Positions 2,162 to 3,755 of a stretch of 56,968 nt of DNA are shown here, piece by piece. Positions within the stretch are counted from its first letter, which is position 1. Each line of letters begins with the position of its first letter. The stretch is from a virus (taxonomy: Duplodnaviria; Caudoviricetes), in the IMG/VR virus record IMGVR_UViG_3300049172_000015, positions 1-56,968 of that record; one strand, 5' to 3'. A program made the position numbers and the translations under genes. Below the pieces are notes generated by a model that saw only the letters and a program-made list of their open reading frames with translations, did not search any database and was not told where the DNA came from.

Positions 2162-3755
2162 ATGCCTCAAACGGGGAACCTCCCGAATGGCGTTCCGAAG
2201 CCCTCAGAGACTCTCGGCTATCAAATCATTCGGTGGTGTCAGAAGTACGTTGTGACGCCGGATGGTGAACGAGCCGGCGAACCCTGGAAATTCACTGACG
2301 AGCAGTTGAGGTTTGTGCTGTGGTTCTACAGCATCAAACCTGATGGGAGGTGGGCCTACTCAGCCGGAACGCTCAGAAGAGCGAAAGGCTGGGGCCCACC
2401 GCAAGACACCTCTCCTCGCAGCACTGGCCATTGTGGAGTTCCTTGGCCCTTGCCGGTTCAGCCACTTTGACGCCTTCGGGCTCCCGGTTGGGAAGCCCGT
2501 CCCTCTGCCCATTGTGCAGATCGGCGCCACGGCACTGGATCAGACCGAGCAGACCCTAGACATGATCCGAGGAATGCTCTCGGAGTCTCCTGCCGAAGAG
2601 AAGTACGGACTTGAGATCTCCAAGAGCATCGTTCAGTTCAAGTCTGGCAAGCCTGGAAGCATCAAACCAAAGGCCACAGCAGGCCGCACAAACGAGGGAA
2701 ATCGTCCATCGTTTTGCGTTATGGACGAATGTCACCATTGGGTTGGTAGCAATGGGGGCCCTGATTTCTACCAGGTGTTGAAGCGGAATATCGAAAAGAC
2801 CACCAAGTCTGGTTCGAGGTGGGTTTCGACCACGAATGCTTACAACCCCAACGAAGACTCTGTGGCTCAGATCATCCATGAGTCGGAGATGGTACGGCAG
2901 GGCTTCTGGCTTTATGACTGCCTCGAAGGTGACATCGAAGTCGAGGACATCCGAGATGAACAGAAGGTTCGCCAGGCTCTCATAGAAGCCTATGGGGATG
3001 CCTCTTGGGCTGACATCGAAGGTCTTACCAAGACGATCCTGTACGACCGCACAACGCCCGATAGCACTTACTGCCGGTTCTACTTCAACCAGATTGCAGA
3101 GTCCTCTGACGGTTGGATGTCGAAGGTCGAATGGGACGCCATCCACTCTACCTATGAGCCCATCAAGCCTGGGGATCAGATCGCCATTGGCTTTGACGGC
3201 TCTATCCGCGGTGACGCAACAGGTCTTGTGGGCTGCCGGCTCAGTGATGGGAAGCTCTTCGTCCTAGACGTTTGGGAGCGTCCCAAAGACGCGAAGGACG
3301 ATTGGGAAGTAGACACTCTCGCGGTTGAGGCCGCGGTTTACAAGGCCTTCCGAGACTACAAAGTCGAGTGGATGTACGGAGACCCTCCCTACTTCCAGGA
3401 AGCCCTTGGTAGATGGGCTATGGCCTTTGCTACCCGTGATACCGAGTACGTCTATGAGTTCTGGACCAACAAGCCTACTCGCATGGTCCAGGCCACCGAG
3501 CGTTTCCGCTCCGCGGTGATGACCAAGGAAATCTGCCACGACGGAGACGAGCGTCTTACTCGTCACGTCCTCAACGCCGTTACCCGCGAAGTCATGGTGG
3601 GTGGCGAAGTCGGAATCCTCATCCAGAAGGACAGCCCACGATCGAAAAGGAAAATCGACCTTGCGGTGTGCGCAATCCTTGCCCTTGAGGCGAGAGCGGA
3701 TGCTATAGCCGACGGGCGCATGAAGCGCCGTAGGAGTCGCGTCGTGGGGTTCTAG
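2162..3755 (+). CDS. terL: Terminase large subunit in two frames (2162-2395 + 2403-3755, 528 aa if joined), with a 7-nt insert at 2396-2402 in Walker A
   Basis: Frame 1 ends RRAKGWG and frame 2 resumes KTPLLAA; Walker B VMDECHHW; nuclease GFDGS and KIDLAV. Confidence 0.92.

Follow-up and report, generated by a model that had tools for sequence, protein, structure and literature searches.

The DNA analysed here, called the window throughout, is a complete virus record of IMG/VR (IMGVR_UViG_3300049172_000015; 56,968 nt, 58.7% G+C). The gene of concern is that of the terminase large subunit (TerL), which is interrupted by seven nucleotides within the Walker A motif, or P-loop. It lies between the terminase small subunit (TerS) gene and the portal gene and occupies two frames (Table 1). 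Frame A starts at the ATG at 2162 and reads AAA GGC TGG GGC at 2384–2395. Beyond 2395, it runs on through CCA CCG CAA to a stop at 2468–2470, for a product of 102 aa. Frame B reads AAG ACA CCT from 2403 (KTPLL…) and is open to 3755, and in the upstream direction it is open from 2313. The motif G-K-T occurs in neither frame alone, the local readings being GWGPPQD in frame A and AGAHRKT in frame B. When the 7 nt CCACCGC are removed, segments of 78 and 450 aa join into a protein of 528 aa, which is the length of the uninterrupted TerL of locus L006. The repeated GC lets the insert be placed at 2394–2400, 2395–2401 or 2396–2402. This frame reading bears out a first-pass annotation of the sequence, which had described a Walker A motif split by a 7-nt insert, intact in neither frame, and an insert free of UUA; there is no TTA anywhere within 2349–2408.

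Table 1. Features of the terminase region, in window positions.
Feature	Positions	Strand	Remarks
TerS gene	1723–2148	+	Pfam Terminase_7, E 4.5e-29; position matches annotated TerS of phage Success
TerL segment 1, frame A, 78 codons	2162–2395	+	ends ...RRAKGWG; 78% identical to Success TerL N-terminus
Mosaic "cassette", ~90 nt	2310–2402	+	patch resembling gap-bearing relative L029 within L006-like backbone; boundaries approximate
Alternative-helix 5′ arm	2342–2352	+	pairs with 2407–2417 (CACCTCTCCTC); 11 nt, 82% complementary
Three-stem hairpin, loop AGAA	2349–2400	+	outer stem 2349–2356/2393–2400, middle 2361–2365/2387–2391, inner 2370–2374/2379–2383
GAAAGG, Shine–Dalgarno-like	2383–2388	+	4 nt upstream of take-off codon; from sequence letters
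Proposed take-off codon GGC (Gly78)	2393–2395	+	GGC/GGT here in all 16 gap-bearing genes seen in DNA
Proposed 7-nt coding gap CCACCGC	2396–2402	+	first triplet CCA; last triplet CGC (2400–2402), the proposed landing site
TerL segment 2, frame B, 450 codons + stop	2403–3755	+	begins at Walker A Lys, KTPLLAALAIVEF...; Pfam TerL_nuclease, E 1.3e-08
Portal protein gene	3768–5213	+	Pfam SPP1_portal, E 1.7e-48

The assignment to TerL, of the HK97-like kind, is based on the nuclease domain (PF20441), the Walker A motif and the TerS–TerL–portal gene order. The GKT of this TerL aligns with the GKT of a solved TerL, PDB 6z6d (E 0.0022). The Pfam ATPase model gives a weak match, with an E of 0.02 on L006, below the cut-off of the model. 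TerL is present once in the window; a second copy was looked for there and none was found. The last 120 nt of the window (56849–56968) repeat positions 16–135, so the assembly closes on itself, although IMG/VR classes the record as "linear". We count the completeness of the genome and the single copy of TerL in favour of a gene that is expressed by bypassing the insert.

The expected form of the junction is well documented. The Streptomyces phages Success, Ponzi and Ibantik are uninterrupted here (...RRAKGWGKTPLL...), and a pairwise DNA alignment to Success leaves exactly 7 extra bases in the window. Among 13 IMG/VR relatives covering the site, 12 are uninterrupted, and the remaining one, L015, carries five extra nucleotides, CTAGC, between the same Gly and Lys (G|K). 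Altogether, 14 distinct uninterrupted DNA relatives agree with the junction that is restored by removing the insert. TerL protein clusters (n = 58) divide into 44 that are contiguous, two that are Pro-first like the window, three of the TTAGC type, three with other leaders and six that start past the junction. All 44 contiguous clusters have KG[WF]GK with no residue between the G and the K. L020 reads KGAGK, which is outside the regular expression used, and the tail of P0002 (GWG-LPKARLL...) is not decodable to a gap type.

Aligning the terL genes of relatives, which had been suggested as a check for gaps at G|K, did reveal gaps at that boundary. At least 16 distinct gap-bearing genes, including the window, have been seen in DNA. 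They come from searches by sequence pattern and from 401 scanned Streptomyces genomes, six of which had a match; the genome scan is a sample of the genus, and the counts are lower bounds. The pattern used on the genome contigs was loose and gave at least 120 matches, mostly noise, with at least five real TerL junctions among those listed. The metagenome contigs gave no matches to the pattern scan and four loci in a protein-based scan. Three of these cover the junction and are uninterrupted; the fourth, L157, falls short of it.

The gaps are 5, 7, 8, 9 or 10 nt in length. Those of 5 nt are TTAGC (L029, L151, L152 and L163) and CTAGC (L015). Those of 7 nt are TTAGGGC (L024 and L025), TTACGGC (L045), TTACGGT (L105), TTAAGGC (L165) and the CCACCGC of the window. 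There is one of 8 nt, TTACCGGC (L037), and there are two sequences of 10 nt, TTACTCCGGT in phiHau3 and TTACCCCGGT in L164. The 9-nt gaps, TAACCCGGT (L148/L166) and TGACCCGGC (L162), are in frame and begin with a stop codon. All three phases are therefore present, and no single frameshift accounts for the family. Exact skipping restores GWGK in every gap-bearing gene, and nothing else does so across all of them. All 16 gap-bearing genes have GGC or GGT as the Gly codon ahead of the gap, versus 7 of 14 distinct uninterrupted ones at that position (hypergeometric 0.0017, uncorrected for relatedness), and every one of the 16 gaps ends in GC or GT. The first codon of the other 15 is UUA, CUA, UAA or UGA, so that the window is the sole DNA case in which a sense codon other than Leu, CCA, opens the gap. 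The last triplet is CGC in the window versus GGY or AGC in the others. Of the 15 gap-bearing genes other than L164, most have long intact frames on both sides; phiHau3, L045, L024 and L163 are exceptions, with breaks further downstream, and L105 runs off its locus. L165 (G385:C17) has a garbled N-terminal part and just 181 open codons downstream, and it is probably a decaying prophage copy.

The boundary in question is that of a published case. The phiHau3 terminase is split by two 10-nt gaps containing UUA (Antonov et al. 2023, PMC10732093; Smith et al. 2013 as described there), and prophages StrepC.1 and that of Streptomyces catenulae have one 7-nt UUA gap each, between g6 and g78 (PMC10732093, section 3.4). 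That paper puts interrupted terminase genes at 3 of 100 analysed. It reports the phiHau3 g6/g7 junction peptide, GWG|(K->N)DPLLAVVCMVEFVGPSR, by mass spectrometry in E. coli with the UUA changed to UAA (section 3.6), and a full-length product in Streptomyces (sections 3.5–3.6). In phages of Streptomyces, published work links terminase bypass to UUA and to the bldA tRNA, and proposes that it senses the stage of the host life cycle. Ribosome hopping in phiHau3 is a proposal with partial experimental support.

In DNA, phiHau3 reads GGC [TTACTCCGGT] AAG GAC, with the gap between GGC and AAG. It has in common with the window a short noncoding insert that separates the Gly of GWG from the Walker A Lys, take-off at GGC, resumption at AAG, strong local structure and a motif restored by exact skipping. 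It differs in that its gap is 10 nt long, opens with UUA and ends in a cognate GGT, and in that a second gap follows 117 codons later. The window has a single 7-nt gap, with CCA first and CGC last, and its hairpin lies 5′ of the take-off codon, whereas the phiHau3 gap itself folds (CUUAC/GUAAG by eye, a region that is also paired in the minimum-energy fold). The StrepC.1 and S. catenulae gaps, compared by their published description, are single and of 7 nt as in the window, and of the same kind as the TTAGGGC, TTACGGC, TTACGGT and TTAAGGC cases, but they contain UUA. The feature in the window is real and homologous to the published candidate bypass site, in keeping with the link to phiHau3 drawn in the first-pass annotation. 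What is new is a gap without UUA and with a non-cognate landing triplet. Two of the other loci, from Streptomyces genomes G004 and G354, are naturally occurring equivalents of the construct with UAA in place of UUA for which bypass was seen in E. coli. These are L148/L166, GGC [TAACCCGGT] AAG, and L162, GGT [TGACCCGGC] AAG; in both, a small hairpin forms between the Trp/Gly codons and the 3′ half of the gap.

The mRNA around the insert is predicted to be highly structured. The outer arms of the hairpin, GGCCCACC (2393–2400) and GGTGGGCC (2349–2356), are complementary over all 8 nt (100%) and enclose the nested stems CAGCC/GGCTG and CGCTC-AGAA-GAGCG, as had been noted at first sight. Of the 7 gap bases, 5 belong to the 3′ arm of the outer stem, as does the take-off codon. 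The RNA of 2340–2415 folds at −36.4 kcal/mol (z = −3.6), with an equally good fold in 1 of 200 shuffles. Comparable hairpins are found in L015, L025, L029, L151 and L152. There is also an alternative helix, between 2342–2352 and 2407–2417, that brackets both the take-off and the landing site, and a counterpart of this long-range helix appears in the minimum-energy folds of L015, L029, L151, L024 and L163. An Rfam scan of 2100–2700 gave only two matches, at chance level and under the gathering scores.

We think that the 7 nt probably act as a translational coding gap like that of phiHau3 g6/g7, but independent of UUA, and are crossed by a +7 ribosome hop. A ribosome in frame A would place GGC (2393–2395) in the P site. 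The peptidyl-tRNA-Gly would then release its codon, the mRNA would slide by 7 nt, and the anticodon would re-pair with CGC (2400–2402) through the second and third positions of the codon. Decoding would restart at AAG (2403), and the product would be a 528-aa TerL with its ...GWG-KT... P-loop intact. The match of the landing CGC at 2 of 3 positions was correctly pointed out at the start, and such a match would have a precedent, as the five 5-nt gaps would land on AGC. Two helpers can be suggested. One is the 5′ hairpin, which may re-zip as the mRNA exits, by analogy with the putative 5′ stem-loop "driver" of T4 gene 60. The other is CCA in the A site, a codon that is rare in Streptomyces-type hosts. 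With GGC at the P site, the inner stem would have its 3′ arm about 10–14 nt upstream, near the mRNA exit.

Other known systems resemble this arrangement in part. Weiss and colleagues, in 1987, reportedly obtained short tRNA hops (+5, +6) in E. coli at a low level, on artificial sequences with matched codons; the hop proposed here would likewise span a few nucleotides with re-pairing of the peptidyl-tRNA, but in an essential gene. The byp elements of Magnusiomyces are 27–55 nt long and unlike the window gap in being mitochondrial and of other sequence. T4 gene 60 has a 50-nt gap with matched GGA/GGA codons, a stop codon, a stem-loop at the A site and a nascent-peptide signal, none of which is seen in the window. 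There, instead, the pair is GGC and CGC, CCA follows the take-off codon, and the hairpin is 5′ rather than 3′ of it. A Gly codon for take-off and a peptidyl-tRNA that is retained are what the two would share. The 5′ stem-loop of gene 60, formed on the exiting mRNA, has been proposed as a forward driver in the account of bioRxiv 10.1101/2024.12.09.627546. Magnusiomyces mitochondria have many short bypassed inserts of the byp type, thought to be mobile (cited in PMC10732093).

Whether the insert is genuine and lasting was judged from contigs rather than single reads. The run from which the record probably stems, a soil metagenome, was assembled separately in Logan, and that assembly has a 56,863-nt contig at depth 34.2, rotated with respect to the window and 105 nt shorter. 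Over 2000–3000, the two are identical, with no other letters and no gaps; this is the same sample as the window, and so not an independent one. A 248-nt contig (X4) from a third study, also of soil, is about 86% alike and covers 2315–2557 with no indel at the gap, a comparison made at the level of indels and not of the gap letters. A contig from a second run has 99 letters in place of 106 nt over 2305–2412, which is the uninterrupted form, and contig X3 stops at 2398, within the gap, and is uninformative. The first-pass annotation had allowed that the insert might be absent from the data or that all relatives might be contiguous. Instead, the insert recurs in a second assembly, and the relatives are not all contiguous.

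Proteins extend the record of the Pro-first type. P0001 (102 aa) is identical to the frame-A ORF at 82 of 102 positions (80%) and ends ...RRAKGWG-PAQDSSPR..., which implies that its gap follows the pattern CCN GCN C. P0013 and P0014, of 470 aa each, are 87% (over 470 aa for P0013) and 92% identical to the frame-B ORF of the window. Their N-termini correspond to the out-of-frame leader of the window, MGGGPTQPERS(D)ERKAGAH(S/R), followed by an intact 450-aa part. The leaders together with frame A fix nearly all bases of the cassette, with one or two deduced differences from the window in proteins that are 8–13% apart. The Pro-first 7-nt type thus appears to be common to three diverged relatives, and since the downstream 450-codon part of P0013 and P0014 is intact, the variant is persistent. 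A scan of viral contigs for more Pro-first gaps gave no match. Within the window itself, segment 2 differs from L006 by 82 nt, with 74 synonymous and 6 nonsynonymous codon changes, and so appears to be under purifying selection.

Several points weigh against a hop. The window lacks both of the features that are most commonly associated with bypass. First, unlike the other 15 DNA cases, it has no stop codon or rare Leu codon in the A site. The codon there had been called slow, as part of CCA-CCG. CCA is indeed rare in the one Streptomyces genome sampled, at 2.4 per 1000 codons over 25 long ORFs (TTA 0.5, CTA 0.6). However, it is common enough in the ORFs of the phage, at 8.0 per 1000 (TTA 0.8, CTA 2.9), and its 121 uses there make it hardly a very slow codon. 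CCA is therefore rare for a Streptomyces-type host yet plainly decodable. Second, the landing triplet is non-cognate. A ribosome holding GGC in its P site would also enclose the middle and outer stems' 3′ arms, and by the T4 analogy the hairpin could then work solely by re-forming at the mRNA exit. P0001, P0013 and P0014 are known as proteins, their gap letters being deduced from two frames, and the frame B deduced for P0001 would alter the conserved Glu of IVEF. A serine-recombinase ORF makes it probable that the phage is temperate, and temperate phage DNA could last for some time without packaging. The ORF in question is an open frame of 511 aa with a Resolvase-domain match at 33773–34195 (E 9.7e-14) and probably encodes a serine integrase of the large type; the window yielded no tyrosine integrase. 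Finally, the data show the layout of the site, its homologous position, the family of gaps and the persistence of this variant, but the hop in this phage, its efficiency and the role of the hairpin are inferred.

Other explanations have been weighed against these data. A quasi-palindrome mutation could have ruined a working UUA-type gap or gene and left a defective or helper-dependent temperate element. The sequence does bear the signature of a templated mutation, in that CCACC exactly complements GGTGG beside a GCC/GGC pair, and the change takes away two features of TTAGGGC-type relatives, the UUA and the landing triplet GGC; a serine recombinase would also suit such an element. We nevertheless regard a broken gene as unlikely, given the Pro-first type in three diverged relatives, two of them with the downstream part intact at 8–13% amino acid divergence, the 74 synonymous against 6 nonsynonymous differences from L006, the lack of a second TerL in the window, and an assembly that closes on itself at depth 34 with no host flanks. 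A +1 frameshift within the gap, for example after GGC, CCA or CCG, would yield TerL with GWG-HR-, GWG-PR- or GWG-PP-KT. Seven nucleotides are +1 in phase, frame B is already open from 2313, and GAAAGG, which we take to be an anti-Shine–Dalgarno match, stands upstream of the take-off codon in a placement that recalls the prfB frameshift. That hexamer is nonspecific, being dictated by the A-K-G codons and present in uninterrupted relatives as well. No triplet re-pairs well in the +1 frame, and the product would have two extra P-loop residues, as argued from the outset, whereas all 44 contiguous clusters lack any residue between G and K. Gaps of 5, 8 and 9 nt at the same boundary would not be rescued by +1 either. 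The phiHau3 work (PMC10732093) could not at first exclude +1, but a stop placed in the +1 frame of the gap left recoding undiminished. Altogether, a +1 shift seems quite unlikely. A −2 shift was also considered, and it would add 3 residues; a TerL made of two polypeptides was rejected, as the P-loop itself would be divided.

The 7 nt might also be lost before translation, through RNA-level excision, editing or realignment of the polymerase across the hairpin. The gap and take-off codon do lie in a very stable hairpin, and DNA and protein sequences do not separate skipping at the RNA level from skipping by the ribosome. We know of no such RNA-level removal of 7 nt in bacteria or phages, and there was no RNA run containing this stretch among the runs listed. 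The phiHau3 product arose in E. coli solely when a slow stop codon replaced UUA, which points to the ribosome (PMC10732093, in the sections cited), and we consider loss before translation decidedly improbable. Least plausible by far is an error of assembly or sequencing, raised early on as a library artefact. The record is a metagenome assembly and was compared with contigs rather than reads; even so, another assembler gave the same letters at depth 34.2, the same type is found in proteins of other collections and in a contig of another study, and an insert of 7 nt is not a homopolymer slip.

The neighbourhood of the gap is mosaic. Over the last 72 nt ahead of it, the window shares 92% identity with L029 and 78% with L006; in the 162 nt preceding those, the figures are 69% for L029 and 85% for L006. 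Past the gap, it is closest to L006 again, at 92% over nt 72–300 of the C-terminal part. The GCC/GGC pair adjoining GGTGG and its complement CCACC is already present in UUA-type relatives. One templated quasi-palindrome event, replacing 5 nt (TTAGG) of a TTAGGGC gap, would produce the gap as it now stands together with the perfect stem of 8 bp. The template switch first offered as an alternative to bypass is better seen as a probable step in the history of the insert than as a competing reading, and it is kept as an inference. Its mechanics fit imperfectly, there being no microhomology for an in-register return. A Pfam search of eight neighbouring ORFs detected no homing or HNH endonuclease adjoining the terminase genes, and so gives no support to an endonuclease-linked origin of the gap.

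It is possible, though doubtful, that the hairpin and gap (~90 nt, 2310–2402) make up a self-contained cassette, one that hops without a hungry or stop codon, is driven by zipping of the exiting mRNA and spreads between Streptomyces-type terminases by gene conversion. Such a cassette would account for a near-identical patch in backbones that are 8–13% apart in protein. Its mobility is only suggested, by the mosaicism.

The G|K site is used far more widely than the published 3 in 100, with five gap lengths and with starts at UUA, CUA, UAA, UGA and CCA. A persistent variant that lacks UUA uncouples the proposed hop from the bldA idea, and a natural cassette of ~90 nt is well suited for testing whether pairing of the exiting mRNA alone drives a short bypass. 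There is also a practical side, in that gene callers report such TerL genes as two separate "hypothetical" ORFs or as pseudogenes.

The same P-loop may be interrupted in other ways. The N-terminal TerL ORFs P0003, P0004, P0005 and P0011 (the last from Streptomyces vinaceus according to its source) end ...RRAKGWGK-LDPAPRH.... They are decoded best as carrying 4 extra nt within the Walker A Lys codon or directly behind it, and no triplet for re-pairing is apparent; this would be a different interruption of the motif. Viral contigs scanned for this 4-nt type gave no match. P0055, from Streptosporangium oxazolinicum according to its source, has the leader ...QQGVVTRG|KTPVLAALAIVEF, which, decoded from the protein, suggests that a gap of 8 nt, reading T?A..., follows the Trp codon, one codon earlier.

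TerL genes of this group are also altered further downstream. A second break occurs 117–118 codons on in phiHau3 (L030) and L045. In Ponzi (L002), L024 and L163, TerL is split 156 codons past the junction into ATPase and nuclease ORFs, and in Ponzi it is annotated as two coding sequences with a 116-nt spacer. Ibantik (L003) and L016/L017 have a 20-residue insertion shortly past the P-loop, Cys-rich in Ibantik, a phage that also has a gene for an HNH endonuclease between its TerS and TerL genes. The sole tRNA of the window is a tRNA-Met (56725–56799). Success (L001) has at least six tRNAs directly upstream of its terminase genes (22–786), including a tRNA-Pro(UGG), the reader of CCA.

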